60,562 bases of DNA from a virus (IMGVR_UViG_3300002052_000004:1-60562); one strand, 5' to 3'; shown: positions 1,067 to 42,600, numbered from the stretch's first letter. The notes: generated by a model from the sequence alone, not told the origin. Numbers and translations are program-made.

Positions 1067-1252
1067 GTGAAATATATCGGTGCGTTTTCCCGTGGCCGCG
1101 ACCCCAGGATAGGCATAGTCGAGCACGGGAAAGTGTACGAAGTCAGTGAAGAGGTAGGGAAAGTTCTACTCTCTACCGGCCAGTATAAAGAAGTACGTGA
1201 AAAGATAGTAGAACCGAAAATAAAAACAAAGGAGGAAAAACCGATTGGCTAA
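1067..1252 (+). CDS. Small hypothetical virion-module protein
   Basis: ORF with upstream GGAGG; overlaps the tail tube start. Confidence 0.55.
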   Translation: MKYIGAFSRGRDPRIGIVEHGKVYEVSEEVGKVLLSTGQYKEVREKIVEPKIKTKEEKPIG

Positions 1253-2219
1253 ATGGTTAGGCATCGGCGAAGAGTCTGCATACATGACGAAAGGTACTGC
1301 AACTGTCTGGCTAGACTTCATTTCGGAGAGCGTCAGAGCAAGCAGAGAATTCATTGAGATACAGACGGTAAACGAACGGACACCGAGGTTTAGCATACCT
1401 GGACCGTTCAAAAGTGCTGGCGATATAGAGTGTCTAAGTAACACTGATGACCTTGGTTCGCTATTGGAGATGCTACTAGGTCCACCGGATACAGAAGGAA
1501 CTGCTCAGGGTACCACGGGTTATAAACACACGTGGAATACGATACCAAATGCTACATTGAAGTCGTATACCATGGAGATACAGAAAGAGATAACGACCTA
1601 TGAGAAGCTTCTATACGGAGCTGCGATAAAGTCATTGACTATCGATTGCCCCATTGCTGATAAAGTCGGTGTAACGGCATCGATATTAGCTGGTAAAGAT
1701 AAACTAGAAACCGCACAATCCCCAGGGACTGCAACTACACTTAAGCCACTAGTATACCATCAGAACGATGTGAGTCTCTTTGGTTCAGCTGCACCATGGG
1801 TTGAATCGATTAGCGTCACCATGGAGAATGGCTTCGACGAGGATGCATTCGTGCAAGGGGATTTGTTCCTACCGGAGCTGATACTCGGCCACTTCAAGGT
1901 AACTGGTACACTTGACCTAAGAGCTAAAGATTGGGATGCATATCAAAGATTCCTTGGAAGCGCATCTGCTGTGGAGCCATCTGCCGTAGTTGAAGAGTTT
2001 GAGATTCAGCTACAGATAGTTGGTGAAGAAGTCGACACAACGCCATACTATGCAACATTGGATATGAGAATGCCTAAGTGTCATTTCACAGAATTGGAGA
2101 TTCCAACAGAGCAGAGGAACAGACAGGTATACACTTTGCCGTTTGAGGCCTTATACGACGACAGTGAATCAACCGTACTGGATATAGAGCTGACGAATAA
2201 ACGGGCAACTACGATGTAG
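1245..2219 (+). CDS. Major tail tube protein
   Basis: 324 aa, beta-rich; N-terminal LGIGEESAY, YKHTW and SYTMEIQK motifs typical of tail tube proteins; upstream of chaperone and tape measure genes. Confidence 0.75.
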   Translation: MAKWLGIGEESAYMTKGTATVWLDFISESVRASREFIEIQTVNERTPRFSIPGPFKSAGDIECLSNTDDLGSLLEMLLGPPDTEGTAQGTTGYKHTWNTIPNATLKSYTMEIQKEITTYEKLLYGAAIKSLTIDCPIADKVGVTASILAGKDKLETAQSPGTATTLKPLVYHQNDVSLFGSAAPWVESISVTMENGFDEDAFVQGDLFLPELILGHFKVTGTLDLRAKDWDAYQRFLGSASAVEPSAVVEEFEIQLQIVGEEVDTTPYYATLDMRMPKCHFTELEIPTEQRNRQVYTLPFEALYDDSESTVLDIELTNKRATTM

Positions 2220-2675
2220 TTGTGCTTGCAATATAAAGGAGGTGATATATTGTCAGCAAAAGACTACAGGGCAAAGCGTCAATTGACTTTCAAAGTTCCG
2301 AGTGGTTTGGATTGGACGATACGAAAGATACCATTCCGAATCATGTGGAAGATGCTAGAGATACTGGGAATAGAAGTACCTGAAGGAATGACAGAAGAAG
2401 ACGCACGGGAGTATGTGAAAAAGGAACTGAAGGGTAAGAAAATTACACCGAAAGTTGTTGAAATCGTTAACTTAGTCGTTCCAGCGATATCATTGAAACC
2501 AAAAGTCGTAATAGGTGTGGCAACAGACGATGACGAACTTGGCATCGATGATATAGACATGGAAGACCTTATGGCGGTCTTTGGTAAAGGCATGGAGATT
2601 TCAGGTGCCACTGAGGATGCTGTAAAGGAACGTGAGTCCTTTCAGCCGGAGTCCCCTAGGAAAATTGGCGGGTAA
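2220..2675 (+). CDS. Tail assembly chaperone (G-like); true start probably TTG ~2250
   Basis: Position between tail tube and tape measure; RBS GGAGGTGA just before 2250. Confidence 0.65.
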   Translation: MCLQYKGGDILSAKDYRAKRQLTFKVPSGLDWTIRKIPFRIMWKMLEILGIEVPEGMTEEDAREYVKKELKGKKITPKVVEIVNLVVPAISLKPKVVIGVATDDDELGIDDIDMEDLMAVFGKGMEISGATEDAVKERESFQPESPRKIGG

Positions 2676-2871
2676 AGTTGCACAAGCGGTAAATAAAAGA
2701 CCTACTGATATGTTACCAGAAGACATAACAGGTACATCGGAATATGAGAAACTAATGCTTGATGCACGTATATTGCAAGAAGTGAGTGAAACGCCCCCTG
2801 ACTTTGGGCAGATGTCGACTCTCGATAAGATAAAGTGGAAGAGAAGAAATTGGCCTAAAAAGTATAGGTGA
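2632..2871 (+). CDS. Tail assembly chaperone frameshift extension (T-like)
   Basis: Overlapping ORF in the +1 frame with no RBS of its own; TCC-TTT-C at 2637-2643. Confidence 0.55.
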   Translation: MSPFSRSPLGKLAGKVAQAVNKRPTDMLPEDITGTSEYEKLMLDARILQEVSETPPDFGQMSTLDKIKWKRRNWPKKYR

Positions 2872-2875
2872 GAGT

Positions 2876-5077
2876 ATGTCAGTATCTGAGAAACGTATTA
2901 AGCTAGCTATCGCATGGATAGAGGAGCATCCAGAGACTCTTACGAGTGTTAAGGGAAAGATAGAGGAACTGGTTGTAGCCACTGACAAAGCGAAAGCTAT
3001 GATTCAGAAATACGTCCCCGAAGGAGCAAAACAGCAGAAGATACTAGCTGCTATAGACCAAGCAGCGATGAAACAAGGGGACAACATACTACGAAACGTA
3101 CTCGCCTATAAGTTGCTTACAAACGCACAGGAAGCTATGCGCCAAGCCTCAGAAAAGAACGCAAAGATGCTGGGAGAATGGGGGAGTAAGTTAGGACTTG
3201 CTGGGAGAAGAATAGGTTACTTCGGGAGAATGATGTTCTATAGCATTCGGAATATAATGCGACTTGGTACACAGTTCCTTCGAATGTTCATGGGATTGTT
3301 CAAGACAGCTGGAGATTTCGGTGCGGCGTTAGAGCAAGTGTCATTTGCAATGGCTCTTCTTGAAAGTCAAGGACTTGTAGCAGATGAAGCAATGACACTA
3401 TTCGGTGAAACTCAGGATATATTGATGGAAAAAGGACCGCAGATATGGGCGTTGTTTGAGGGATTTAAGGCTCTTTTCACATCACTCGCCGTCGTCATAG
3501 TGTCGGAACTTTTGCCTGAATTAACGGAACTTCTGAATACGTTAGCAGCACTTCTTAACAGAGAGGATGTAAGGCAATTAATACATGATATCATGGTAAC
3601 TGTGCTTGACCTAGCAGATGCATTTATAGAGGCAATACCTTCAATGTTACCGGTGATAAAAGGAATGCTTGACTTGGCTGTGGCAGCTAAGCCACTAATC
3701 GTTGCATTGTTGCCACTACTGCCTGTAATACTCGCTCTTTCGTTGGGTCTTTGGGCATTGGGTCCGATAATACAAGTGATTGGATTTATCATGCAAGTGG
3801 CAGGTTTCCTCACAGGTGGACTTGGAATAGCAATGACCACTTTATTACCAATAGTAGTAGCTCTTGCAGGTGCAGTCGCAGTCGGTGTAGGAGTCTTCTT
3901 ACTACTCAAAGATACACTTGGGACGACTAATGCTGCAATAGTTGCTATCGGAGCTGCAGTAGCCGCATTCATAACAATATTCTTCGGAGTGAAGGCACTG
4001 TTATTAAGTGTCGGAGCCGCTGGAGCAGCTGCTGCACCAGGAATTGTGGCCGCCGGAACAGCATTGGGTGCTGCAGGAGTTGCAGCAGCTCCAGCGATAC
4101 CGATTATACTTGCAATCGGAGCTGCTATAGCACTAGCTGGTGCAGGATTCCTTATGGCAGGAGCTGGGGTAATGCTTGCGGTTGACGCGGTGATTAGGTT
4201 GTTGGAAGCATTGCCTCAGCTTGTACCTATGGTACCTTACTTGTTTGCAATAGCTGCTGGATTGATGGCAATAGCTGTTGCAGGGATAGTATTGCTTCCC
4301 GCAGCACTTGGATTAGGAGCAGCTGCTGTTACACTTATGATATTCGCAGGTGCATTAGCAGTGGTTGCTGCACTTTCTGGGGCGATAGGAGTAGTAGCGA
4401 CCGGAATCTTACTCTTAGCTCAGAGCGTAGGCACACTCGTGAAGTCTATGGTAGGGATTATACCGCTAGTCGGACCGACACTTGCACTATCGACTGCGAT
4501 GTTTGCACTGGCAGCTGCCGGAGGAACTATGATGTTCGGAGCACTTGGAGTTACCGCAATGGCTGGTTCTCTCTTCGTACTTAGTGGAGGTATAGTTGCC
4601 CTAACCGGTGCAATCTGGGGATTGGTTGCAGCTGCGACAGCATTCGAAGCAGTTGGCGATACTGTAACAAGTATTGTCGGCGGAATTTCTGATGCAGTAG
4701 GTGGATTGGCTAATGCACTATTCGGACTCTGTTTCAGACATGCAACACCTATGGCAGAGAAGTTTGGGAAGAGTTTGGTAGCCGTACAGAGTGATATGAT
4801 AAATACAGAAAAAGGACTACGTGATATGAGAGACGAACTACTAGAACCATTCTCTTGGCAAGCGGTAGAAGTGGCAACTGGAGCGCCTGCGATAAGAGCG
4901 GCAGGTGAGAGAGTTGGAGAAGCTGAGCCGAAAGAGCAGCATATTACAATTGAGATGCCTGTCACTGTTGATTTGACTGGCGCTGTTATTTCGTCAGATA
5001 TGGATGTAGATGAAATAACAAATAAAGTAGGAGAGAAGTTAGGAGAAAAAGCAAGAGACTTGGTGACACTATTATGA
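2876..5077 (+). CDS. Tape measure protein
   Basis: 733 aa, Ala/Gly/Leu-rich helical protein with long hydrophobic stretches; follows the chaperones. Confidence 0.85.
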   Translation: MSVSEKRIKLAIAWIEEHPETLTSVKGKIEELVVATDKAKAMIQKYVPEGAKQQKILAAIDQAAMKQGDNILRNVLAYKLLTNAQEAMRQASEKNAKMLGEWGSKLGLAGRRIGYFGRMMFYSIRNIMRLGTQFLRMFMGLFKTAGDFGAALEQVSFAMALLESQGLVADEAMTLFGETQDILMEKGPQIWALFEGFKALFTSLAVVIVSELLPELTELLNTLAALLNREDVRQLIHDIMVTVLDLADAFIEAIPSMLPVIKGMLDLAVAAKPLIVALLPLLPVILALSLGLWALGPIIQVIGFIMQVAGFLTGGLGIAMTTLLPIVVALAGAVAVGVGVFLLLKDTLGTTNAAIVAIGAAVAAFITIFFGVKALLLSVGAAGAAAAPGIVAAGTALGAAGVAAAPAIPIILAIGAAIALAGAGFLMAGAGVMLAVDAVIRLLEALPQLVPMVPYLFAIAAGLMAIAVAGIVLLPAALGLGAAAVTLMIFAGALAVVAALSGAIGVVATGILLLAQSVGTLVKSMVGIIPLVGPTLALSTAMFALAAAGGTMMFGALGVTAMAGSLFVLSGGIVALTGAIWGLVAAATAFEAVGDTVTSIVGGISDAVGGLANALFGLCFRHATPMAEKFGKSLVAVQSDMINTEKGLRDMRDELLEPFSWQAVEVATGAPAIRAAGERVGEAEPKEQHITIEMPVTVDLTGAVISSDMDVDEITNKVGEKLGEKARDLVTLL

Positions 5078-5472
5078 CGTGGACAATTAAAAATATCGCA
5101 GAAACTGTGACGGTGGCGCTACCACAAGACCCCGAAGTGTATAAGGGGCAGTCTGCGAAGGTGTTGAAACAGCATCCAATGCAACAGCAGTATCCGTTTA
5201 TCTTTCCACATGGTGGAAAAGCTCGAATACTTAAATTGGAAGGTGCAGTACATGACAATACTAAGACTATTGCACAGATATATTCGGCATGGTTGAATCA
5301 GTTGGAGACATGGGCGGAGGATAAAGTGAGGATAAAGCTAACATGTGATAGCGGTAAAGGTCATACATCGGAAGAGATGTACTTGGCTAAATTTGACCAT
5401 GAGCCAAGGAAAGGATTCTTACATACTGTTTGGATAAAGATGGAACTTTGGAAGAAGGGGGCTGAGGATTGA
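5074..5472 (+). CDS. Putative distal tail protein
   Basis: 132 aa, immediately after the tape measure gene; ATGA overlap. Confidence 0.5.
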   Translation: MTWTIKNIAETVTVALPQDPEVYKGQSAKVLKQHPMQQQYPFIFPHGGKARILKLEGAVHDNTKTIAQIYSAWLNQLETWAEDKVRIKLTCDSGKGHTSEEMYLAKFDHEPRKGFLHTVWIKMELWKKGAED

Positions 5473-8400
5473 GCTACGAGTTACAATATGGTCCTTCATG
5501 GACTGCAGTTAAACCTGGCAGAGTTACGTATGGAGAGAGACAGAACAATCTACGTGCATGTGTTGCCACCGTGGCTAATACTTCTGCCAACAGGTCTGCT
5601 TTCACTCACAATACTGAGGTTAAAGTCTTTCTAAACGGTGACCAAATCTTATATGGACAAGTGAAGGCTCCGGTTGATGAGGGAGAGTTTCTTAAGGTAA
5701 AGATTGTTGATAGAGCAATTCAGCTTACAAGAGATGTATGGGAGAGGGACCAAGGACAGTCAGATAAGAAAGTAATTAAGTATACAACCTCTGCAGCAAG
5801 TACTATAGGTGGACATATACTATCAGGAACAGGATTCTCGCTTGGAGCTTGTCCAGGTACTACTGTGTCGATTAGATTTGAATATGTCACTAGGCTCCAA
5901 GCAATTGCTGCATTGGCAAAAGCACTTGGATTAGATTGGTGGGTCAATGACAATAAAATGGTATACATTGGAACTAACAATACAGCAAGAGGTACTATTG
6001 GAACATGTATGTGGGCAAAGAAGGAACCAGACGATGAGGCAAAGAGGGACCAGATATTTTTGAAGGGTGTAGATGACAATGGCACTGCCATTGAGGTGAC
6101 ATCTCCAGACCCGCCAACTGGTACTAATGCTGCTTACTTCACAGCTAGAAATCCTATGGATGCTACAACATTACAAATTGTAGCCGATGCTCTGTTAGCT
6201 GAGCTAAATCAGACTCAAAAGGTAGTAAAAGCGAATTATGCAGCTGCAGATGGTGTTGTTGGAACTAATGTTTTGCTGCGACCTGGTAACACCATGAATA
6301 TTAACTGGGGGACTGTTTCAGAGACTGCAATTGAAGTTATAGTAGTTGAGTTAAAGGATGAAAAGCTAACTGTTCATTGTGGAGTGTATAGGCCTGAAGT
6401 AGAAGAGTTGGAACGAGAACTTGGAGTTAAGATTGATATACAGGAAACAAGTTCTGTTGCTTGTTTTATGGATTGCCAGTTGCAGTGCCAGACATCTGAC
6501 CAAGTTTCTACACTAGCTGATGAGTTTGAAGGTACAGGAGTGTTATGGAACGAGATTAACGGTACCTGGGCTATAAGTGGTGGTTACTATAAACAAACGA
6601 ATACTGCATCTGCACACCATAAGAGTGTTTTGAAGTATTGTAAGTTTGCTGATGGTGAAGTGCAGGCAACATGTGTACCAAAGAATACATCAAAGGTATG
6701 TGGGGTGATAATGAGAAAGCAAGATGGTGCGGATACTTACTACTTTGCATGGCTAAACGTATCGACTGCTACAATAACACTATGGAAGATGATAGCTGGA
6801 ACACCTGCCATGATTACCAGTTATTCTGACGGGTCAATCTTATATGATACTGCTTATCGGGTAGCTATGCAGATACAAGGAGATGCTATTCGGGTATTTC
6901 TGAATGGGGAAAAGTTAATTGATACTACCGACGGTTCAATCACAGGAGCAGGGACTGCAGGATTAATCTCATATGCTGGGGAACACTGGTTTGAGAGATT
7001 CGCTTTCTATCCTGGTCAGTTTCCATCTGGTTGTACTGAGACTTGCCAAACGGAATGTCAATTGGGAGAACAGATATGTGCAAGTACTGGTAATTGCGAA
7101 TCTTCCTGTCAATCAACGCCATGTCAGTCACAAGATTGTGAAGCTGGTGGAATTTGTCAAAACGATTGTGAGGCCGGACATCGCTGCGAACTGACATGTG
7201 AATTTGCTTGCCAAGCAGGTTGTCAAATTTCAGAGGCATGTCAGTTAGCTTGTCAACCTGTGTGTCAGACAAGTTGCCAAGACTCTGGTACCTGCCAGGT
7301 GCAGTGTCAAGCAAGTGTACAGACTTGTGCACAGAGTGGACAATGTGAAAGTGCGTGTCAAGGTGCTTGTCAAGGTGTAGGTACATGTGAAGATGTATGT
7401 CAGACGGACAATCAAATGCATAGGATACTGACAGATTACAAAGCTGTATGGCATTGCAACGAAGAATCTGGTACTGATTTGTATGACTCTAGCAAGTATG
7501 GTAATCATGGCTCCGAGAATGGACCCACTACCATATATTCCGCTGGTAAGTTTGGTTACGGAAAGAAATACAATGGTTCGAGTAATTGGCACTCAATACC
7601 TCATTCTGCCAGCTTAAACATTACAGGCACAAAAATAACTATTATGGCATGGATAAAGACTGACGGTGGTGCTGGTAGCGGATACATAGTCTGCAAAAAC
7701 CTTGATGCTATCGGTAACATTCAGTATGCGTTGCTTTGGTACGCTACTGGTCCTGTGTTGAGGTTTTATGCCGATGGTGCACAACGCGGTAATGACTCTG
7801 GTACACTCTCAACAGGTATACTGTATCATGTTGCAGTAGTGTATAACGGTACTGATGTACGCTTTTATGTTAACGGTGAACTATCTGGTACACCTGGAGC
7901 GTGGACTTCTCCAATTACTAGTACAACTCATCCGTTGTGTATAGGTAGACGAAATGCAGGAACTTACTATGACGGAATGGTTGACGAAGTATGTATCCTA
8001 AAGGCAGCTTTGTCAGCAGCTGAGATAAAGGCTATATATAATGCTTCAGAACTACCTATCTTTGTTTGTGAGCAAGCTTGTGAAAGTACATGCCAAGGAA
8101 CAGAAGCCTGCGAAACAGGAGGCATTTGCCAAGATGCTTGTCAGCTTGGACACCGCTGTGAGTTGACTTGTGAAACAAATTGTCAAGTTGCGTGTCAAAT
8201 AGATTGTGAGACTACTTCTGCTTGTGAGACTAGTGGAGTTTGCCAAGGTATATGCGAGACTGGTCATCAGTGTGAGTTGACTTGTGAAACAGACTGTCAG
8301 GCAGGAACCCAAATTTGTGCAAGTTCAGGAGCTTGTGAAAGTTCATGCCAGAGTACACCTTGTCAAAGTCAAGATTGCGAAGCAGCTGGAGTATGCCAAG

Positions 8401-9098
8401 CAATATGTGAAGCAGGACATACCTGTGAAACAACTTGTCAAGATGAGTGTCAGGCATCATGTCAAAGTGCTTGTCAGGTATCGTGTCAAATTGCGTGCCA
8501 AGTATCGAACCAAATTTGTGCAAGTACTGGAAATTGTGAAAATGCGTGTCAGCAAACGTGCCAGCAAGCAAAGGCATGCGAGTCTGGTGGGGTATGCCAA
8601 GGCATCTGTGAAACTGGACATCTTTGTCAAGTTACTGCTCAGATATGTGATGGAACCCATTCCTGTCAAACCTCTGGACAAGTTGGTCACGAAGGTTACA
8701 CTGCAAAAAAGATTTCATGGACTAAAATACATGATACTGGAATGGGTTCAGAGCAGAAGGTTGAGGTTGGCTCATCATGGGACGTAATTCAGACTGCACT
8801 ATTTACTCCGGGTTCTGATGCACAAGCTTTAACTGGTGTTTTGGTAAGATGGGAAAGAGGTACAGTTGGTGGTGGATATGCAGAGGTTCAGTTTGCGTTA
8901 GTTGAAGGGGTGAATACTCGACATACTTGGTATGCGTATGTGAGTGGAGAACATCCAGATGGGCAGGTTTACATAATGTTACCCCTGCTATTCCCTGGTG
9001 GCACGTACCTTTATGTGAAAGGTCGAACAGCTTCAGGGTACGTGTATGTTAAGGCTGAAATAGAAGTATATCAGAGTCCTGAACATAAACATATTTAG
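5469..9098 (+). CDS. Tail hub/tip protein with LamG/ConA-like domains and Cys-rich CXXX (SCIFF-like) repeat tracts
   Basis: N-terminal ~330 aa resembles a hub/Tal domain. A LamG-like domain (WHCNE...DSSKYGNHG...ITIMAWIK...HVAVVYNG...YVNG...GMVDEV...ALSAAEIKAIYN) is present. Cys tracts at aa 522-644 (26 Cys) and aa 867-1066 (41 Cys). Confidence 0.8.
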   Translation: MSYELQYGPSWTAVKPGRVTYGERQNNLRACVATVANTSANRSAFTHNTEVKVFLNGDQILYGQVKAPVDEGEFLKVKIVDRAIQLTRDVWERDQGQSDKKVIKYTTSAASTIGGHILSGTGFSLGACPGTTVSIRFEYVTRLQAIAALAKALGLDWWVNDNKMVYIGTNNTARGTIGTCMWAKKEPDDEAKRDQIFLKGVDDNGTAIEVTSPDPPTGTNAAYFTARNPMDATTLQIVADALLAELNQTQKVVKANYAAADGVVGTNVLLRPGNTMNINWGTVSETAIEVIVVELKDEKLTVHCGVYRPEVEELERELGVKIDIQETSSVACFMDCQLQCQTSDQVSTLADEFEGTGVLWNEINGTWAISGGYYKQTNTASAHHKSVLKYCKFADGEVQATCVPKNTSKVCGVIMRKQDGADTYYFAWLNVSTATITLWKMIAGTPAMITSYSDGSILYDTAYRVAMQIQGDAIRVFLNGEKLIDTTDGSITGAGTAGLISYAGEHWFERFAFYPGQFPSGCTETCQTECQLGEQICASTGNCESSCQSTPCQSQDCEAGGICQNDCEAGHRCELTCEFACQAGCQISEACQLACQPVCQTSCQDSGTCQVQCQASVQTCAQSGQCESACQGACQGVGTCEDVCQTDNQMHRILTDYKAVWHCNEESGTDLYDSSKYGNHGSENGPTTIYSAGKFGYGKKYNGSSNWHSIPHSASLNITGTKITIMAWIKTDGGAGSGYIVCKNLDAIGNIQYALLWYATGPVLRFYADGAQRGNDSGTLSTGILYHVAVVYNGTDVRFYVNGELSGTPGAWTSPITSTTHPLCIGRRNAGTYYDGMVDEVCILKAALSAAEIKAIYNASELPIFVCEQACESTCQGTEACETGGICQDACQLGHRCELTCETNCQVACQIDCETTSACETSGVCQGICETGHQCELTCETDCQAGTQICASSGACESSCQSTPCQSQDCEAAGVCQAICEAGHTCETTCQDECQASCQSACQVSCQIACQVSNQICASTGNCENACQQTCQQAKACESGGVCQGICETGHLCQVTAQICDGTHSCQTSGQVGHEGYTAKKISWTKIHDTGMGSEQKVEVGSSWDVIQTALFTPGSDAQALTGVLVRWERGTVGGGYAEVQFALVEGVNTRHTWYAYVSGEHPDGQVYIMLPLLFPGGTYLYVKGRTASGYVYVKAEIEVYQSPEHKHI

Positions 9099-9122
9099 GA
9101 TGAACAATAAGGAGGTAGAAAA

Positions 9123-9419
9123 ATGGAATTGTTGAACGAAACATTTGAAGTAGAGACAAAGAAAAGCAAAGAATACACATTTGTTGCACAGAAAGGTCTT
9201 TCGGGAATGGATGTGTACGCCAAAGTTAACCCAACAGAGACCCAACTTTCACCAAGTGGAGTATCCATTGAAGTGACAAAGAAAGGAAAGATAGTTCGCG
9301 AGATACAACTGAAAAATGTAGCATTTGCCATTGGCAATGCTGAAGGTACCTACAAAGTAATAATTAAGAACAAGAATCCACTGACGGTGACAGGAACTGT
9401 AAGAGTAGTGACTGTATAA
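9123..9419 (+). CDS. Hypothetical beta-rich protein between the Cys-rich tail protein and the radical SAM gene
   Basis: RBS GGAGGT; stop overlaps the radical SAM start (TAATG). Confidence 0.7.
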   Translation: MELLNETFEVETKKSKEYTFVAQKGLSGMDVYAKVNPTETQLSPSGVSIEVTKKGKIVREIQLKNVAFAIGNAEGTYKVIIKNKNPLTVTGTVRVVTV

Positions 9420-10543
9420 TGGTCTGGCAAAGTCTCTCGTTGCACACGTCAAAGCGGTGCAGCCTGAGATGCAAATACTGTTTTCTAGATAAGAACCCTG
9501 AGGATGCTGACTGGAGTACACTAAAGGCAACCCTCGATTGGTGGTTCAAAGTTACCGGACAGAAGACTCATGTACACATCTTTGGGACAGAACCATTGAT
9601 TCGGTATGACCTGCTTCAGAATGTGTTTGAGTATGCAGACTTGTTAGCAAAGAGAACTAAGAAAACATTGACTAAGGGTATTACTACGAATGGAGTAGGG
9701 ATGACTAGAAGTGTAGCTAATTGGTTGACTAAGAATAAGGTGTCTTGCTTGTGTAGTATTGATGGCATGAGAGAGCAGCACGACAAATACAGAGTGTTTC
9801 CAAGCGGGAAGGGTAGTTGGGGTATTGTAAGTTCAAACTTTCGACGCTGGGTAAGTATGAACCCAAATGCTGAAGCGGCCATGACTGTAACACCAGATAG
9901 CATCCCGAAGCTTGCAGAGAATGTTGATGCTATCTACAAGTTGGGATTCTGGGCAGTTGCACTAAATAAATGTGTTGATTCGGGACCAACGTACACCAGT
10001 GAGGATTTTAAGGCTTTATCTCTTGCTTTCCGAAGGGTTAATGACTTGATTATCAAGTATGCTAAGAAGAAGGTGAAGAAACACATTATGTTCATCTCTA
10101 ACATGACAATTAAAAGAGCTCAAGGACGAGCAGTGAAGAATATAATGACATCCTGTGGTGCGGCAAAAGGTTCACTTGCTGCAGACATTTATGGAAAGAT
10201 ATACATTTGCCATAGGGGAGTGTTCGATTACGGAACATTCGGGGTGGGCAATGTTTGGGATGGGTTGGATATGCAGAAGATTCAGGAGTGGCGAGCCAGA
10301 AGAAATAGTCATTGTCTGCACTGTAGAATGGTGGAATGTTCTCCATGCTATGTTATCAATTTTATTCGCAACGGAGATGTGATGAAGACTCCATGGGAAT
10401 CATGTGTTTATAACGAGCTAGTACATGAGGCAAGTTATGACTTAGACAGACAGCTTAAGAGAGAGGGTTTGTATAAATGGTATTGTGGTACTCCTCTGAA
10501 ACCTCATCCTGTAATTCAGGTGAGGCAGAGAAATAAACTATAA
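9419..10543 (+). CDS. Radical SAM/SPASM-domain maturase
   Basis: CSLRCKYC (CxxxCxxC), FGTEPL, TTNG, SIDG...HDKYR; C-terminal SPASM-like CGAAKG...DIYGKIYICH...CLHC...CSPC...C. Confidence 0.9.
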   Translation: MVWQSLSLHTSKRCSLRCKYCFLDKNPEDADWSTLKATLDWWFKVTGQKTHVHIFGTEPLIRYDLLQNVFEYADLLAKRTKKTLTKGITTNGVGMTRSVANWLTKNKVSCLCSIDGMREQHDKYRVFPSGKGSWGIVSSNFRRWVSMNPNAEAAMTVTPDSIPKLAENVDAIYKLGFWAVALNKCVDSGPTYTSEDFKALSLAFRRVNDLIIKYAKKKVKKHIMFISNMTIKRAQGRAVKNIMTSCGAAKGSLAADIYGKIYICHRGVFDYGTFGVGNVWDGLDMQKIQEWRARRNSHCLHCRMVECSPCYVINFIRNGDVMKTPWESCVYNELVHEASYDLDRQLKREGLYKWYCGTPLKPHPVIQVRQRNKL

Positions 10544-10555
10544 GGAGGGTGAGAA

Positions 10556-10879
10556 ATGGACATATATCTACTGATGCTGATAGCTGTATGTGCTGGAGCA
10601 GCCGGTCGAACACTCTACCACTATCTGTTCAAAGTGCTAGACAATCCAGGACTGGCCTTTGATAAGAAATACATAGTAACAATGCTTATAGCTGTTCTTA
10701 TGACCATCATGTCGTCACCATTGCTTCTATTGAATGTAACAATTCCTCAAGGGAGCGATGGTTATATTGCAATTGCTACATTCGCCATTGGATGGACTTC
10801 GAACGACGTATTGAATCCACCTGTGTCTTTGGCAGCCAATACAATTACGAAATTGAAGGAGCTCGTGAATAACAAATGA
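10556..10879 (+). CDS. Small membrane protein (holin-like)
   Basis: Two to three hydrophobic helices; end of the late operon. Confidence 0.55.
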   Translation: MDIYLLMLIAVCAGAAGRTLYHYLFKVLDNPGLAFDKKYIVTMLIAVLMTIMSSPLLLLNVTIPQGSDGYIAIATFAIGWTSNDVLNPPVSLAANTITKLKELVNNK

Positions 10880-11334
10880 GTTCACTGACACCACAACAGA
10901 AGATTAACATATTAACCGTTGTGGTTATTGTACTCTTGATTGCTATGATAGGCTTCGCTTATGCTGCAGTTGTACAGACTTTGAGAATCCGGTCCGAAGG
11001 TGAGGTAAAGACCATTGGTGTCGAAGTGTATGCAGATGTTGGCTTGTTGATTCCAGTGAACAATATTAACTGGAGTGTCTTGGAACCTGGCGATGTTAGG
11101 AATTTAACAGTGTATGTAAAGAATGCTGGAAGTGCACCGTCTAATCTGTCTATGTGGACAGACGCTTGGAATCCACCTGTAGCTGAGACGTACATAGCAT
11201 TGACATGGGATTACGATGGAACAATACTAGAACCTGGACAAGTTATACCTGTGGTGCTTACTTTGACTGTCGATACAAATATTACTGGTGTTACCAAGTT
11301 CTCGTTTGACATATGGATATCAGCAGAAGGGTAA
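10876..11334 (+). CDS. Membrane-anchored exported Ig-like protein of a Bathyarchaeia-type family
   Basis: N-terminal TM helix, then GEVKTIGVEVY...INWSVLEPG...VYVKNAG...WNPP...LTWDYDG...FSFDI. Recognised from memory as a Bathyarchaeia paralogous family. Confidence 0.65.
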   Translation: MSSLTPQQKINILTVVVIVLLIAMIGFAYAAVVQTLRIRSEGEVKTIGVEVYADVGLLIPVNNINWSVLEPGDVRNLTVYVKNAGSAPSNLSMWTDAWNPPVAETYIALTWDYDGTILEPGQVIPVVLTLTVDTNITGVTKFSFDIWISAEG

Positions 11335-11340
11335 CACAAC

Positions 11341-11356
11341 CACCCATTTTTTTAAC
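11341..11356 (+). terminator. Oligo-T archaeal terminator after the late operon
   Basis: CACCCATTTTTTTAAC directly after the 11334 stop. Confidence 0.45.
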
Positions 11357-11385
11357 TTAGTCGAAAGAAATAAGGAGGTGAAAAT

Positions 11386-11736
11386 ATGGAAGTTACATTG
11401 CCAGAATCTATTCTGAAGTCGACTGGTCTCATGAGTGAGCTCGTGGATTGGTTGAGTCAGAGAAAACGGCTGGAAATACTGTTGTTCCTGCACAGGCGTG
11501 GCACTGTTAAATGGTCAGATGCTCATAAGGCGATAAATGTAAATGACGGAACGTATCGAAGAGCTTGTCGAGAGTTAGAACGATTAGGCTTAGCCGTTAC
11601 TATACCAATCGACCCAGTAAAAAACAGGTGGAGGCTAACGGACTTCGGATGTCTAATAACTGATGTCCTGCATCGCGCGATACGTGATATAGATGTCCTA
11701 ATCAGGAGTGAGCACAACACCACAGGCAGAGAATGA
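11386..11736 (+). CDS. Winged-helix (ArsR/HxlR-like) DNA-binding protein
   Basis: RLEILLFL...RACRELERLGL...WRLTDFG pattern. Confidence 0.7.
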   Translation: MEVTLPESILKSTGLMSELVDWLSQRKRLEILLFLHRRGTVKWSDAHKAINVNDGTYRRACRELERLGLAVTIPIDPVKNRWRLTDFGCLITDVLHRAIRDIDVLIRSEHNTTGRE

Positions 11737-11832
11737 TTAGCTGTCGGAAAGGCTAGGCAGAAAAGAGTGGAGAGATGCGCACACGGCTCTCATTTCTCCT
11801 CTCTCATTCACCTCTTTCTCCTAGACCCGAAA

Positions 11833-12210
11833 TCAGCTCCTTCTGCCTGCAACGGTGAATACCACTTTCCGTCCGTCCCTCTCTTTTTGTACATACCCCA
11901 TCAATAACAGTTGATTCAGATAACCAGACTCAACTGCTCGCCTTTTTTCAGTATTCTCTGCGATTTCTGATGCAGTGGCCCTACCTCCAAGTTTATTTAA
12001 AGTTACGAATGTTTGGAATAATTGCTTCGGTAAGGCTAAAACTTCCTTAAGTGACAATCCGAATGCTACTCTATCCACTGGAGCAATATTTTGTCGGATA
12101 GATTGCAATAGCCTGCACACGCTGTCATTGCCTTCCTCTGATTCAGCACGAAATCTTTTTATCTCCTCAGTTAATCGGTCAATTGCTTTTACCATACTTT
12201 TATAGCTCAC
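11833..12210 (-). CDS. Winged-helix transcriptional regulator
   Basis: ATASEIAENTEKRRAVESGYLNQLLLMGYVQKERDGRKVVF. Confidence 0.75.
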   Translation of the reverse strand: MSYKSMVKAIDRLTEEIKRFRAESEEGNDSVCRLLQSIRQNIAPVDRVAFGLSLKEVLALPKQLFQTFVTLNKLGGRATASEIAENTEKRRAVESGYLNQLLLMGYVQKERDGRKVVFTVAGRRS

Positions 12211-12221
12211 ACTTTCACCTC

Positions 12222-12701
12222 CTAACTTTCACTGAGTCTTTTCACTCGTTCGATTTGTCTATCAAGCCAATTCGGTGCATCTACGTTCACACCGAGTTCC
12301 TTCAACTTTTCTAATGTCTCTACAATCTCCGTTGGTATCGGTGTCATGTTAAAATCGGCATCCTTTATCTGTCTGTTCAGTGTTCTCATGAGGAACGCAA
12401 CTTCGTTGGAACGTTTCACTTCCCCAACGATTTTCTTCTGTTGAACTATCCGTTGGTTAAAGTGCTCTAAACGCTCCTGCAAGGTTGTTTTCTCAGTGTC
12501 CACATCTTCTAACTGTCTAAGTACCTTCTGTCTTTCCGTGAGAAGTATCTCGAGTCTTATCTCCTCATCACTTACAGTTGGTGAGGACACGGCAGCTTTG
12601 AGAATCCTCTCACACACCTGACTCATATTTATGTTGAGTTCTTTGCAGCGCGCGACAAGGTCTTCATCTAAGTAGAGAGTTGTTGTCTTCTTCCTTCCCA
12701 A
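12222..12701 (-). CDS. Ribbon-helix-helix (CcdA-like) protein with coiled coil
   Basis: KKTTTLYLDEDLVARCKELNINMSQVCERIL N-terminus. Confidence 0.65.
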   Translation of the reverse strand: MGRKKTTTLYLDEDLVARCKELNINMSQVCERILKAAVSSPTVSDEEIRLEILLTERQKVLRQLEDVDTEKTTLQERLEHFNQRIVQQKKIVGEVKRSNEVAFLMRTLNRQIKDADFNMTPIPTEIVETLEKLKELGVNVDAPNWLDRQIERVKRLSES

Positions 12702-20313: not shown

Positions 20314-20571
20314 TCATTCAGCATACTCCACAGGCCCTAACGCCTGTAAACCTCTATTCGTACCTGTTAGCTTCAATATTCGTGACCGTGGAAAGTATAT
20401 CGGATGTGAGTTATCGAACTCCTCAGGAGGTAATATCTTCATATCCCAGATGTATGCAAACGGGCAGATGTGTGAAAGTCTGTCTGAGAATACGGTGTCT
20501 ACCGCCTCAATCGGACATCTGTCGCAGAAGAAGAAATCTATTGCTTTGTGTATCGCTCTACCTAGGTCCAT
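20314..20571 (-). CDS. Hypothetical protein
   Basis: ORF overlapping the end of PolB. Confidence 0.45.
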   Translation of the reverse strand: MDLGRAIHKAIDFFFCDRCPIEAVDTVFSDRLSHICPFAYIWDMKILPPEEFDNSHPIYFPRSRILKLTGTNRGLQALGPVEYAE

Positions 20572-23300
20572 TTTGACAACTTCAACTCCTTTGTTTCCTT
20601 CATTTCAAGAGGCCTTGACTTCACTTCGTGATGTAGGACAACCTTCCCTTTGAACTTCTTTGTCTTCTTCCCTTCGGTAACCTCCTCCCAATCTACACCG
20701 ATAGCGTTGAAGAGGGGTTTGAAATGGTTCGTCAATACCAATCCTCTCATCTTCTCCCAGTCTACGAACGGGTAGAGTTCATCTGGCATCCTCTCATCGG
20801 TCTCGGTCAAGCAAATAACATCTGTATCACAACCTCGCTCGGTTTCTGCCAAAGCGTTAGTCTTAAATTTCCTTCCCTCTGCGTACTTCCTCTTACGTTC
20901 CTCTCTCATAAGGTCTTTAGTTTTCGCTCCCTTAATCTTCTTCTTCGTCGCAGTCGTCCTCCGACCGAGCATCCAGAAGAGTAACGGCTTCTTATCCTCG
21001 CGGAAAACCTTCCCGAAACGCTCCGTCATGTAATCGCAGCCATCCTTCCAAGGGTTACGTGCTATATACTTCTCCTCATGCAATCCCCTCGGTAGACCGA
21101 TAGTATTCATCAGCTGTTCAGGTAATGTCATCCATGCATGTTTAATGAGTGCCTTTGCTCCTTCCACTTGTTTCTTCACTAGGACTAACTCCAACCATCG
21201 TAACATCAATCTTCTCGTATATGATGGCGTACTACTTCTCCTCGGTGCAAGTCCGACAACGTAAAGATTATTATTCTTATCCGTATATGCATACCTTTTC
21301 TTCGCCGCTGTAATCCTTCCTCTCTTCTTCTCAATCTTCGGAACGAATATAATCCGTCTACAGTATTGCTCATACTTCGCCTCGATGTTGAATGTCGCTC
21401 CTGCCCTCCACGCAATCCTCTTAAGTGTCTTATTAACTATTGTTTCAATCACCCGGCCTTCTTCTGGCATATCTGTGCGAAGTTGTGTGAAGAGTGAATC
21501 CGTATCACCGTATCTTACTTTATATCCTCCTTTCTCACAATCTATCTTACACTCGAGTAACGCTTTCCTACCGAGGAATGTTATTGCCCTCCTCACAGCA
21601 TCACTGTACAATCGGAAGTTCTCATAGCCGGTAACTCCGTAGTAACTGCACGCGAGAAACTTGTGAAGCGTCTCCAACATCTTATTCATTTCATAGTTAG
21701 GATGTGTTGGAGACATCGTTCGCAGTATTGCCCTATACTTCTCCCTCTCCTCCATGTCGTATCGTACTGCTTTCGGCAAGATTCCTTCTGGTTTCCGACG
21801 AAAGTGCATTACCGTACCATCTTCCATCGGACCGACAATAATGTCATCCCACCGCCAATCCTTCGAGTCGGCAACAAATGTCTCAGGCGAGAGGTTATAC
21901 ACCCGAATCAACATGGGGTACAGGGCTTTCTCGTCTATTATTACAATGTGTTCATGAATCCCTATGTCAGGGAGGAGTACTATCGCTCCTTTCACTCTAT
22001 GCTTCTTTCCGTACTCTCTCGTCGGTAATGGCGCATCTCCACGAAGTCTAAGTAATCGCGTATCTATCAACCGCGAGTTATGTATAGCAAACTCGAGAGG
22101 AAGACCGACTATCCTTCGGAGCCTGTCGAAGTACGCAACAAGTTGTTTCTCCTTATCGAGAATATACAGTGCGTACGCATCCCCCGCACAATACTCCGCC
22201 CATTTAAGAGGGTGCTTCGAACGACTCTCTCTTACCTTATCGCCAAGGTCAACATAATAAAACCCGCACTCTTTCTCCATAACCAAGTGGAAGTCGAATG
22301 TGCTTGTAAAATCCTTCCCTGGTATGACTCTCTTTGCACCTTGCCTCCCTCCGGCCCACTTCCTATACATCTTGTAGAAGTCAATCATCGAGATACCTTT
22401 CACTCGCGATACAAGCCGCCATTTCTTTACCTGAGGTGTTCCTACCTTCCTAGCAATATCCTTTCGCACACCTCTCTGGGGTTTGAACTTACTCTCCGTG
22501 AGTCCGAACGGCGAGAGACGTTTCAAAACACTATGTAACTGCAACTTCTCTCCGCGTCTAATCCAGTACGGCCAATCAAACCCATCGGAGTAGTAACCCC
22601 CTGCTGCATCGAAGTCTTGCCAAACCGACCATAGTGTAGCGTCATGAATCATCGGTCTCTCTTCGTCATATAAGTAAATCGTCGGTTTGACTTTCACATC
22701 CCACTCTCTGCCACCGAGCTTTCTATGAAACGTAATCGGTAGTGTTATGGCATTCTTACAGCCAATGAATCCTTTAGGAATCGGTAGCTCCTCTGTGATG
22801 GGTAAATCCGTTTTAAGCATAAAAAGCGTGAGGTCTTTCGTGTAGTTATTACTGAACTGAAAACTCACAATCGGCCAGATAGGGTCCCTTGGTTTCGCCA
22901 TAATCTCAGGCGGTGTCTCCACTTCGATGTCGAAATAACCTTTCTTCGGCGGGATATCTAAACTCGGTGCAGCGAAAATCTCTCCATTCTCTAAGCCGTA
23001 ACCGCACTTTACCCCTTTGTCGAGCAAGTACCGCCACTCGAAAAGTATGTCTGCCTCGCAGTGATACTTAAACTTATCTCGGAGTCTCCTGACCTCACTC
23101 GGCATTACTGTATCTACCCGTTGAATCGAGTCTCCGAAGAGATTCTTTCCCGCTCCTGTTCCATTCGCCCAGAAGTGAGGAACCTTTCCGTCGATTCGAT
23201 GTGACTGCCTCACTCTATTCTTATCCCTACTACGGAGAAATATTACGGGCTTGCCACCTATCGGATGATAGCCCTGATTCATAAGGTCGAATCTATTCAT
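20562..23300 (-). CDS. polB: Family B DNA polymerase
   Basis: Exo I FDIE, Exo II FDWPY, Exo III YCAGD; polymerase motifs DEKALYP, KFLACSYYG, YGDTDS, KKRYA. Confidence 0.95.
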   Translation of the reverse strand: MNRFDLMNQGYHPIGGKPVIFLRSRDKNRVRQSHRIDGKVPHFWANGTGAGKNLFGDSIQRVDTVMPSEVRRLRDKFKYHCEADILFEWRYLLDKGVKCGYGLENGEIFAAPSLDIPPKKGYFDIEVETPPEIMAKPRDPIWPIVSFQFSNNYTKDLTLFMLKTDLPITEELPIPKGFIGCKNAITLPITFHRKLGGREWDVKVKPTIYLYDEERPMIHDATLWSVWQDFDAAGGYYSDGFDWPYWIRRGEKLQLHSVLKRLSPFGLTESKFKPQRGVRKDIARKVGTPQVKKWRLVSRVKGISMIDFYKMYRKWAGGRQGAKRVIPGKDFTSTFDFHLVMEKECGFYYVDLGDKVRESRSKHPLKWAEYCAGDAYALYILDKEKQLVAYFDRLRRIVGLPLEFAIHNSRLIDTRLLRLRGDAPLPTREYGKKHRVKGAIVLLPDIGIHEHIVIIDEKALYPMLIRVYNLSPETFVADSKDWRWDDIIVGPMEDGTVMHFRRKPEGILPKAVRYDMEEREKYRAILRTMSPTHPNYEMNKMLETLHKFLACSYYGVTGYENFRLYSDAVRRAITFLGRKALLECKIDCEKGGYKVRYGDTDSLFTQLRTDMPEEGRVIETIVNKTLKRIAWRAGATFNIEAKYEQYCRRIIFVPKIEKKRGRITAAKKRYAYTDKNNNLYVVGLAPRRSSTPSYTRRLMLRWLELVLVKKQVEGAKALIKHAWMTLPEQLMNTIGLPRGLHEEKYIARNPWKDGCDYMTERFGKVFREDKKPLLFWMLGRRTTATKKKIKGAKTKDLMREERKRKYAEGRKFKTNALAETERGCDTDVICLTETDERMPDELYPFVDWEKMRGLVLTNHFKPLFNAIGVDWEEVTEGKKTKKFKGKVVLHHEVKSRPLEMKETKELKLSKWT

Positions 23301-39667: not shown

Positions 39668-42600
39668 TTATGGATTGAATCCGCAAGTCATACAGTAACC
39701 GGACCGTGATACGTTACTTTCACTGACATTCTTGCTGTAAGGTTGTCCGCAACACATACATGTTCCGTTCTCGATGTTCAGATTCTCGGATTCCCAAGCC
39801 ATACGCTGGTCTTCGTTCTCCCTTTCCCAATCAAAGTCCTCTTCTGCTTGCCTAGCCGGTTTCTCAAACTTCTCTCTACCATGTGGACATAGGCCCAAAT
39901 TATCACCTCCTATAGTCTGATTCACAGGGCCAGTTTTCCGATTTACTTACACACTAACTTGTAAGTAACCTCGGTGTGCGTGACTTCTTTCTCTTCCCTC
40001 ACTATTCGGCACCTTGGTATTGTCTCCGGACCGTAGACATTCACGCGGACATTGTCTACCTTACCTCGGTAGTTCACTCCGTCTGATTCTGCACCTTTGT
40101 TGAGTCGTACGTGTAACGCCTTTGCAACATCATGCGCGTGCTCAAAGTGCGCGGTCTCCAAGTATATCTGCTCATCTCCAAAGAGATTCATCGGTTCACT
40201 TCGCAGTTGTTCGGCCAACTTTATCTTCATCTGCTTCACTTTCAAGAGTCTGTCCCGTCTTCTTCCCATCCTCTCCAATTCGTTTCCGTAGTCACGCTCT
40301 ATCTTCGCCAGCAATTTCACCTTCCATTCTTCCATTTATATCTTCACCTCCTTTGGCATGAGTAACTCCTTATGCTCATACATCCTCTCCAACTCCTCCT
40401 TCGTTCGAAGCACACCAGATTTACTGTGCCTCTCGAACTGATTGAAGGGATTGTACGCATAATGCTCACATGGTTCAAGGAAGTCCACTCTCTTATTACA
40501 CCGACTGGACTTCTTGTTCTTACAGTAGTGCTTCGGCAAAGTACTGCCATTCCTCTTCATCTCCGCTGAAATGTACACTCCCGCCAACCTTGGCGTGACT
40601 TTCAGTACATACCAACAGAGCTGGCATATATGGTCAATCCCTGTCTTCGTCGGTTCCACTTACATCACCTCTGTAAGTATAACTGGATTAGCCTCTGGGT
40701 ACTTTTCCCTTGCTTTCTTCTTTGCCAAATCAAAAGGCGTGTAACCTTTGATACTCCGATGCTCTCGCATTGCTTTCTGAACGTCGGCCCCTTTAACAAA
40801 GACCTTCCCTACTTTGATGAACTTGTTATCCTTTATCGTCTCAACTCGCCACGTCGAATCAGGAATAGGCTTTGTTCCCTTACGGTATCTGCTCTCCACT
40901 TTTCTTCCCCTCCTTAATATGGGCGTAAACTACTCCTCTCTGTACACGAATCCGTATGACTCTCTCATCGTCAAGTTGACTCACTGCCTTCTGAATGAGC
41001 CATCGCTCTTCGTTGAACTGCTCCGCTAACTCATCCATAGTGTATGCCAACTCTGGCTCCGTTTCGAGAAACTCCTTAATCCTCTCCTTCAGCTCAATAA
41101 GTTCCATACTTCTTCCAACTCCTGTGAACTTTCACGAACTTTCCTCCACACTTTTTGCATGCCCAACCGAGTGGGTGTCGTTTATTCCTCTCAACCGGGT
41201 CGGGAACTAAACGTCCTCCACAGTCAGGACATCTTCGAGCTGTCAACCTTTTTACCTTCCGAAGTTTGTCTTAGCAATCGCTTCAATTGCCGCCTCTATA
41301 TCCTTAATTTCCACTTTGAACGGACCGTACTCTCCTTTGTGTGTCTTCGGCGGTTTAATCACTAACCACCCTTTGTCCAATGATGGCTGCAATGTCACAT
41401 CATAGTCACAGTTGTCGGTCTCGTTCATACGAGCCATTCTCGCGAGGATTACTACATCATGTACCACTCATATCACCTCCTTATGGGTCTCGATATACCT
41501 TCCTCTCAAACCGATTCTGTGCGATGCAAGCTCCCTCTTCAAGTATTGCCTCCTCGAGGCTCACAGGGTCTATGTAACCTATCTCTGCTAGTTCTTGAAG
41601 TGCTTCTAACTCCTCTAACCCTTGCCTCTCCGTAATCTCTCTCCTCTCAGACGGGTCGAGGAAATCCATGAATGGGTCGTAGTCACCGACACAGAATGCC
41701 GCGTACTGTTGTGCGGCATCATCATCGTTCCCTCGCGCTCTTGCTTCATCGTAAGCTTTACTCCACTCCATGTCCTTTACTTTCCTCTTCCCCCATTCTC
41801 GCAGTTCCATGAACTCGTTCACACTCATCGGTTGCCACTTCGGTAAGTTTGGCATTAATCCATTAAAACTCACATGCTCACCTCCTACCATGTTACGTGT
41901 TTGAAATGTTCCTCCCAGAACTCATTTATCTTTACCTCAACTTCGACCCATTTGAATCCTCGCTTTGCGATAAATGGATATCCGGCTGAAAAGGCCTCTT
42001 TCCTCCCATTTGGTCCAGTGAAGTATACAGCAGCCATTTCAGCGGTTATCTCCTCGAACGATTGTTCCATATCAAGTTTCTTCAGTGCCTTTTGCCCAAG
42101 CTCTGTGATAACATACTTCGCTGGTTTCATAACATTCAAGTGTGTGCGTTTCACTAGTCCACGAATTAACAGTGTTTCAAGGAATTTTGAACTCCAAGCA
42201 GTTACCGGCCGAAATATCTCATGATTGTGCTCTTTACCATCAGCGAGTTTCCGCAATGCCCAATGATGCCTTCCAAGTGTTCTCATTTTCATACTACTCA
42301 CCTCGCATCTGGCAAGCTATCATCCTTTCAGGTGTGTATTCTTCACAGCACCAACATCTACCACAATCATGTACGTGTTTACAGAACCAAATGAGGAAAT
42401 CCTCATGCGTCTCAAACATACTCTGACAGCTTTCACACACACCACTCCAATGTGCTGTGAAGAACAGTCCACAACACTTACAGCGATAGTAGTGAACTTC
42501 TAGAACTTCTAATCTAATCGGACTCATGTTGGGTTTATCTCCTGCGCAATGTACTGGTCGTTGTTGAACGACCTCTTCTCGTCCCTCTTCTTCTGCCACT

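Follow-up and report, generated by a model that had tools for sequence, protein, structure and literature searches.

Thioether cross-linking by radical S-adenosylmethionine (SAM) enzymes is known for short secreted peptides. The complete tailed-virus genome IMGVR_UViG_3300002052_000004:1-60562 (here called the window, which is the whole record of 60562 bases, with direct terminal repeats and a completeness rating of 100%) encodes in its tail operon a radical SAM enzyme and, two genes upstream of it, a tail-tip protein of 1209 amino acids (aa) that carries long tracts of regularly spaced Cys. We think it probable that this enzyme stitches the tracts into stalks stapled by non-alpha thioethers.

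Since 2026 the chemistry has also been known for one archaeal protein (PMC13692751). As the available text of that paper describes it, CrpC puts several ranthionine links on CrpA, a 28.8-kDa protein of Methanococcus voltae, and processing persisted in part without the RiPP recognition element (RRE), RiPP standing for a peptide that is synthesized ribosomally and modified post-translationally (Dieter et al. 2026, PMC13692751). QhpD is described there as linking Cys to Glu and to Asp by thioethers in a protein subunit that is retained in a larger assembly (PMC13692751). PapB, in the available account, joins Cys to the carbon next to an Asp or Glu carboxylate, the acceptor lying i+1 to i+7 after the Cys (PMC12373016), and NxxcB of streptococci is reported to form a radical beta-thioether from Cys to a carboxamide residue three positions upstream, with Gln tolerated there (PMC9389541). 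The words "phage" and "viral" are absent from the main text of PMC13692751 as available, and full-text searching, judged from titles and abstracts, found no publication in which a radical SAM enzyme cross-links a virion protein.

The 1209-aa protein is, by its modelled fold and its place in the gene order, the central tail-tip (hub, Tal-like) protein, in keeping with the earlier note on this DNA, which had called it a virion tail-tip protein. Its gene follows those for the tail tube, the chaperone-like protein, the 733-aa protein in the tape-measure position and a 132-aa protein, and its TTG start overlaps the stop of the open reading frame (ORF) upstream (..GGATTGAGC..). An AlphaFold2 model of residues 1-344, built on an 18-row alignment, reached a pLDDT (predicted local distance difference test) value of 78.5 and a predicted template modeling (TM) score of 0.75. 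Foldseek returned 71 matches to this model at E <=0.001, with hubs of contractile injection systems and phage baseplates leading at TM 0.60-0.65. These included the Mu baseplate (9ki1_G, E 1.3e-15), Mu gp44 (1wru, 2.1e-14), the tail of Haloferax tailed virus 1 (9h4p_BD, 2.2e-15) and the phage 80alpha baseplate (6v8i_AE, 6.9e-12), as well as T4 gp27 and VgrG, with TM scores overall of 0.5-0.65. The protein thus has the gp27/gp44-like hub fold at its N terminus and lies after the gene in the tape-measure position, as baseplate hub and Tal proteins do. Remote homologs of the hub domain number 148 at E <=0.001, in proteins of 161 to 4335 aa and mostly as N-terminal matches; Cys tracts occur in only one of them, P0121. 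Because 1 in 148 carries them, the tracts are a rare insertion in a common scaffold.

The tracts themselves are as the earlier note had described them, with 3, 26 and 41 Cys at exactly the positions it gave, in a protein with 81 Cys in total. Of the two LamG/ConA-like domains that it placed among the tracts, the second is secure, whereas the first has weaker credentials: it matches TS_C at 22.1 bits, below the cut-off of 27, carbohydrate-binding module (CBM) chains at an E value of 6e-4, and the second domain over 19 residues (E 0.005). A fourth, loose group of 3 Cys (residues 391-411) lies inside this first domain and is off the repeat rule.

The noted spacing of about four residues and the Gln or Glu after almost every Cys are both borne out. 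Among the 73 grouped Cys, 39 have Gln and 24 have Glu as the following residue (63/73), and the Cys-to-Cys distance is 4 residues in 37 cases, 6 in 21, 7 in 5 and 5 in 4. This +1 position is the only fixed-distance relation in the tracts; Gln or Glu is also found at +5 of the Cys in 47/73 and at -3 in 37/73, which follows from the four-residue spacing. As a DNA pattern, five consecutive C[QE]xx units occur four times in the window and not once in 100 shuffles. The tracts are built of modules, among them one of 22 residues (C-E/Q-x-x-G-x-C-Q-x-x-C-E/Q-x-G-H-x-C-E/Q) with five copies across tracts 2 and 3 and a second with four copies across the same two tracts. The copies are 60-78% identical at the DNA level, with the Cys, the Gln/Glu and the Gly-His pair kept, and because their identity is no higher than this, the tracts are not the product of recent slippage. 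Both modules also occur in the homologous proteins P0121, P0168 and L004, and the fragment in L003 holds only the first.

One stretch at ~8448-8519 had been said to mirror closely the core of SCIFF (ranthipeptide) precursors. The stretch is there, but homology to SCIFF is not supported: the SCIFF precursor model TIGR03973 scored 6.6 bits (E 7.5, residues 975-1035; cut-off 50), with no match to the whole tracts. The CXXX-repeat target models TIGR04114 and TIGR04117 gave 11.9 bits against a cut-off of 20 and 10.7 against 50. NCBIfam scans of the tracts returned nothing significant, tract 2 matched no family at E <=10, and a protein atlas search yielded no usable match for tract 3. As judged by these searches, the likeness of the tracts to SCIFF is one of repeat grammar and not of homology.

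The enzyme carries the signature that the earlier note read from it, a CxxxCxxC radical SAM motif with a SPASM-type Cys cluster in the same operon, two genes downstream. Its C14-x3-C18-x2-C21 motif is invariant in 9/9 family members, and PF04055 matches at 33.8 bits (cut-off 29.5), which places it in the radical SAM superfamily. Seven further Cys (C246, C264, C299, C302, C307, C310 and C329), spaced Cx12Gx4C ... Cx2Cx4Cx2C ... C as for two auxiliary 4Fe-4S clusters, are likewise invariant in 9/9, making ten invariant Cys in total, and all seven SPASM Cys of CteB align with invariant Cys of the enzyme.

The search against maturase models that the earlier note proposed found the expected families, all of them below their curated cut-offs. 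The best of 60 NCBIfam families was PapB (NF047865, 183.6 bits against a cut-off of 340, model positions 3-329 of 330). There followed the SCIFF maturase TIGR03974 (131.1 against 425), nif11 (125.2), QhpD (121.6) and the CXXX-repeat maturase TIGR04115 (110.8 against 350), with the CrpC family TIGR04463 at 46 against 525 and anSME (TIGR03942) at 58.7 against 349. With a family profile, the closest solved structure was CteB (5wgg, E 2.8e-45), far ahead of anSME (PDB 4k37, E 8.8e-14). Residues in proximity to the catalytic site of CteB are given as F, F, T, S, H and Q in the available text of PMC10288494. Mapped through the CteB alignment, in which the numbering of the PDB chain runs 3 ahead of that of the paper at all six sites, the enzyme has F22, F55, T89, S113, H265 and R266, so that 5/6 are identical to those of the ranthisynthase, and the family members P0009 and P0010 match at 6/6. 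The sequence comparisons therefore support siding the enzyme with the thioether-forming PapB/CteB/QhpD group, as had been proposed, and not with anSME or PqqE.

The enzyme's close relatives are 8 metagenome proteins with 32-82% identity. Relatives on cellular genome contigs are distant, at <=27% identity over the full length, and viral contigs, scanned both with the enzyme by itself and with the alignment of its family, yielded no relative. The interval 9000-12300 holds no further Cys-rich ORF of at least 25 aa, which leaves the tail-tip protein as the only candidate substrate nearby. Two small proteins on the minus strand, at 42294-42599 (101 aa) and 42709-43116 (135 aa), were considered as substrates and rejected: they are zinc-finger-like and not related to the tracts, with scattered CxxC pairs and no repeat, and lie ~32 kb from the enzyme on the opposite strand.

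The pairing of tract and enzyme recurs in other viruses. L003, with an enzyme of 68% identity to this one, and L004 (81%) carry the same kind of tract-bearing tail gene directly upstream of the enzyme. Two more homologs of the tail protein, P0121 with 115 Cys and P0168 with 57 Cys, agree in source and in the length of their single contig with the enzyme homologs P0008 (73943 nucleotides) and P0007 (9412 nucleotides), respectively, and each pair presumably shares its contig.

A scan of viral contigs with the DNA pattern yielded at least 114 loci. We called a tract complex if its ORF was 150 aa or longer and it contained no fewer than 6 distinct xx pairs, and the counts that follow are among the loci listed. 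A related enzyme lay inside the locus in 8 of 13 with a complex tract and elsewhere in the record in 2 more, and the last 3 have a Cys ORF that is truncated downstream by the end of the contig. No related enzyme was seen at 39 loci without an in-frame tract (0/39), as against 3/62 at loci with simple or short repeats, which are mostly tandem DNA repeats read in some frame; 2 of those 3 carry short real tracts. For 10/13 versus 3/101 the Fisher test gives p = 1e-9, a value that is weakened, although the pattern is not, because the threshold for a complex tract was set after the loci had been seen. The co-occurrence that the earlier note had anticipated is thus present, at 10/13 against 0/39. 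PapB was the best NCBIfam model for 9/10 of the partner enzymes, under its cut-off.

A FastTree phylogeny was computed on 87 rows, namely the 85 best-scoring sequences of at least 280 aa from 154 long-match loci plus 2 added, with L197-L200 dropped as duplicates of the same records. The tree has many long branches and was used only for the immediate clade of the window and for the scatter of tract-linked phage enzymes. The window groups with L002 and L003 (support 100) and, one step further out, with L019 and the viral L094 (support 96), and other tract-adjacent phage enzymes fall in at least 4 further places. Because of this scatter, the pairing seems to have arisen more than once. Distant metagenome relatives with 28-29% identity lie behind pairs of 140-315-aa proteins in which every third residue is Cys.

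The 98-aa ORF between the two genes has a Shine-Dalgarno sequence (AAGGAGG) 7 nucleotides 5' of its start, and its stop overlaps the start of the enzyme (TAATG). Homologs occupy the same place in L002 (60% identity) and L004 (66%), and at that place L003 has a divergent ORF of 118 aa. Other pair-bearing phages, e.g., L127, lack the protein. It had been suggested that the 98-aa protein might be an accessory factor standing in for the RRE that the enzyme appeared to lack. The lack itself is confirmed, since the alignment opens at enzyme residue 4, which corresponds to CteB chain residue 97, and only 17 open codons lie upstream of the enzyme start. The substitution fares poorly: the model of the 98-aa protein (pLDDT 83.2) has 8 strands and no helix and is similar in fold to the C-terminal domain of Tk-SP and to GOLD/PPC domains (TM 0.73-0.75), and because it is an all-beta sandwich and not a winged helix, the protein is not an RRE. 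A predicted complex of the enzyme with the 98-aa protein scored 0.00 against a mark of 0.32, which counts neither for nor against an interaction.

Under the reading that we favour, the enzyme would act on newly made tail-tip protein in the host cytoplasm, before tail assembly. At each site it would cleave SAM and abstract a hydrogen from a side-chain carbon of the acceptor, which would then be joined to a Cys sulfur that is bound to an auxiliary Fe-S cluster, leaving many intrachain non-alpha thioethers. The acceptor would most likely be the Gln or Glu found beside almost all Cys; +1, +5 and -3 geometries are each possible, given the precedents of PapB, NxxcB and CrpC in the available texts. 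With ~70 repeats per chain at most, low-complexity linkers would become irreducible stapled stalks carrying the receptor-binding, lectin-like domains. A stronger form of this proposal, which to us could as well be wrong as right, is that the RRE-less synthase turns ~320 residues per chain into a sulfur-carbon ladder, giving up to ~200 links per virion over three chains, and that such systems have arisen repeatedly in uncultured phages, from several enzyme lineages. It is possible that some links join the three chains and so lock the trimer covalently.

Several observations weigh against thioether stapling by this enzyme. It falls under the curated cut-off of every named family, and Pfam SPASM (PF13186) gave no match to it at E <=0.1, nor at E <=1 in the six frames of the genome. 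Nothing found accounts for substrate recognition: the enzyme lacks an RRE, and a search of the genome for a PqqD-like domain (PF05402) gave no match at E <=1. Gln (39) exceeds Glu (24) after Cys, whereas the acceptors of PapB, as far as described, are acidic only. The invariant Gly-His and four Cys of the 22-residue module would also suit metal binding, and both the restriction of the DNA-pattern counts to the loci listed and the post hoc definition of a complex tract count on the same side.

Some of these points would fit an enzyme that modifies the tract Cys by other chemistry, such as sactionine formation, Cys oxidation as in anSME or another radical reaction. Because all the family scores are below their cut-offs, homology does not fix the exact function of the enzyme, and sactisynthases are described as sequence-divergent and hard to separate by full-length similarity (PMC10288494, available text). 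We nevertheless regard other chemistry as rather unlikely. The enzyme shares 5/6 catalytic-site proximity residues with the ranthisynthase CteB, whereas of six residues that were changed by mutation in StsB, a sactisynthase (Y, T, I, S, K and L in the source as available), Ser alone is matched; anSME scores far lower, with 58.7 bits for the family model and an E value of ~1e-13 for the structure; and the near-invariant Gln/Glu beside the Cys fits a side-chain acceptor.

Alternatively, the tracts might be metal-binding or disulfide repeats that need no enzyme, with the radical SAM protein serving a host or another viral target. The conserved Cys and Gly-His module could ligate Zn or Fe-S, and an enzyme devoid of a detectable docking domain would be less puzzling if the tracts were not its substrate. 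Such an arrangement leaves the company that the two genes keep unaccounted for, as a related enzyme is present in 10/10 informative complex-tract records and in 0/39 controls, the gene order is repeated in both relatives with readable contigs (L003 and L004), and there is no other Cys-bearing candidate near the enzyme; we therefore find it improbable. Still less do we expect that the tracts are a polyprecursor excised as small thioether peptides, i.e., a virus-encoded RiPP that is not kept in the virion. The repeat grammar does resemble RiPP cores, and elsewhere repeat-only proteins of 140-315 aa adjoin related enzymes. Here, in contrast, the tracts sit between folded domains of a hub protein that has a conserved C-terminal domain, the units are not set apart by any leader-like repeat or clear cleavage motif, and family scans of the neighbouring genes (PHROG and Pfam) contained no protease or exporter family, which makes this a very remote prospect.

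Across 10 other Cys-tract proteins, Pfam found weak Ig-like domains in one only, and PHROG assigned L098 to Hoc-like head decoration, two to an amidase family and three to phrog_6085. The L098 gene (730-2433, minus strand; phrog_10993, E 1.6e-89) contains a tract of C[QE]xx units and has a radical SAM fragment at the contig edge, so the pairing may also occur on capsid decoration proteins. The tract proteins at L159 (4561-6951) and L182 (3557-5716), which lie by PapB-like enzymes, match the phrog_5107 amidase at E 1.7e-7 and 1.8e-4 and may be tail-associated lysins with stapled linkers. P0169, P0170 and P0171 (903-1390 aa, 70-94 Cys, C[QE]xx tracts) have a precomputed PF27846 assignment that was not seen for the protein of the window.

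At L005 (6014-8352), and also at L006, L007, L008, L013, L014, L015, L021, L032, L040, L050 and L055, one or two Cys-triplet proteins with 41-86 Cys each, often in the form C-E/Q/D/N-x, are encoded immediately upstream of a PapB-like radical SAM enzyme; the cassette of L006 follows a tail-fibre-like gene (phrog_4176, E 2.7e-14). On one viral contig (L192, 10436-12857), a true CXXX-repeat maturase (TIGR04115, 614.3 bits, above 350) adjoins a 258-aa protein with 62 Cys, and its nearest neighbour in the tree is an enzyme of Desulfocucumis palustris. A 172-kb viral record (G003, 70912-72441; L197/L198/L200) has its radical SAM match in an 851-aa frame that may be a fusion, and a protein of 1350 aa and 122 Cys (L164) is encoded in the same record.

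A tail module occupies the first ~11.7 kb of the plus strand (see the table). Between 5469 and 10543 the genes lie on one strand, with overlapping stop and start codons at two junctions, and no plus-strand terminator-like site was found in that interval. PHROG and Pfam scans gave no match for the 132-aa protein upstream of the tail-tip gene and no family for the 107-aa protein 3' of the enzyme, and the C-terminal domain of the tail-tip protein had no sequence match in the PDB. The tail operon ends, after the 107-aa protein, with a 152-aa protein (10876-11334, plus strand) that has an N-terminal hydrophobic segment followed by strand-rich-looking sequence and no family match.

Features of the tail module and landmark genes of the window
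Feature	Coordinates	Strand	Basis or remarks
Tail tube protein	1245..2219	+	PF18906 Phage_tube_2, E 1.3e-22; phrog_290 minor tail protein, E 2.4e-28
Tail assembly chaperone-like protein	2220..2675	+	phrog_4336 tail assembly chaperone, E 7.6e-5; DUF7391, E 1.5e-6
733-aa protein in tape-measure position	2876..5077	+	position and size only; sole match weak (phrog_5218, E 2.4e-4)
132-aa protein in distal-tail-protein position	5074..5472	+	stop overlaps start of tail-tip gene
Tail-tip hub protein (Tal-like), proposed substrate	5469..9098	+	1209 aa, 81 Cys
N-terminal baseplate-hub domain	5469..6440	+	~residues 1-320; AlphaFold2 model and Foldseek
Cys tract 1	6462..6488	+	residues 332-340; 3 Cys, spacing 4
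First lectin-like (ConA/CBM-like) domain	6501..7031	+	~residues 345-521; levanase CBM chains 4b1l/4azz, E 6e-4
Cys tract 2	7032..7400	+	residues 522-644; 26 Cys in 123 residues
Laminin_G_3 (ConA-like lectin/glucanase) domain	7575..8030	+	residues 703-854; PF13385, E 8.1e-27, 94.7 bits
Cys tract 3	8067..8666	+	residues 867-1066; 41 Cys in 200 residues
C-terminal domain	8667..9098	+	143 residues; conserved in L003 (27% identity) and P0168
98-aa beta-sandwich protein	9123..9419	+	no Cys
Radical SAM enzyme, proposed thioether synthase	9419..10543	+	SPASM-type Cys, no RRE
107-aa hydrophobic protein	10556..10879	+	3' of enzyme; 45%-identical homolog after the enzyme in L002
Family B DNA polymerase	20562-23300
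T4-like portal	48361-49821

The end of the chaperone-like gene is overlapped by a 79-aa ORF (2632-2871, plus strand) that lies in a different frame; tailed phages often carry a programmed frameshift product at this place. Downstream of the portal, a 459-aa protein (52396-53775, plus strand) has a metallo-beta-lactamase-fold domain (PF12706, E 1.1e-7) and a weak MG2 match. No tRNA genes were found in the window. The label "marine sediment metagenome" is borne by the two sequencing runs that contain the whole stretch and that may be its source. Two further runs, from other studies (X3 and X4), hold a few identical 150-230-nucleotide pieces of the tail gene at low depth, their uncovered parts being uninformative, and no RNA run is listed among the sequencing runs holding the stretch.

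If the proposal is right, this would be the first virion structure welded enzymatically by thioethers and would represent a new class of virion maturation, a covalent and irreversible one that does not depend on redox state. It would account for the stiffening of long fibres without disulfides in phages of reducing habitats. It would also point to RRE-less enzymes that handle large folded substrates at dozens of sites, which could be useful for protein stapling. Additionally, an entire group of substrates would be escaping the rules by which RiPP clusters are annotated, since the "precursor" in this case is a structural protein of 1209 aa.

Taken together, the comparative evidence for the pairing is strong and stapling by thioethers chemically plausible. 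The system of the window would work like CrpC/CrpA, PapB/PapA and QhpD/QhpC, although it reaches the curated threshold of none of them. It resembles CrpC/CrpA in that a radical SAM/SPASM enzyme is paired with a whole Cys-repeat protein encoded beside it and not with a short peptide. According to the available text, CrpC differs in belonging to TIGR04463 and having an RRE, and CrpA in being cellular, with a leader-like N terminus and a C-X-X-Q/D motif; the window has instead a 1209-aa viral hub with internal tracts, Cys followed by Gln/Glu at +1 and an enzyme devoid of an RRE. CteB (5wgg/5why) differs in its N-terminal domain, which has no counterpart in this enzyme.

PapB, which acts on PapA to form freyrasin, is the best-scoring family, and the Cys-Glu spacings of the window lie within the i+1 to i+7 described for it. 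As far as the source goes, PapB differs in docking on a leader via its RRE and in restricting cross-linking to acidic acceptors (PMC12373016). PapA is a short peptide with six links. The QhpD/QhpC system (TIGR03906; 121.6 bits against a cut-off of 453) differs in making three links in a small subunit, in having an RRE and leader and in being cellular. CXXX-repeat systems are alike in that their targets have Cys at every fourth residue and lie beside a radical SAM/SPASM enzyme; we know of no published chemistry for that family. No NxxcB-named model was among the best 25 NCBIfam families for the enzyme. NxxcB/NxxcA differs in forming a single link in a short quorum-regulated peptide, and it is similar in geometry, with the window placing Gln or Glu three residues before the Cys in 37/73.

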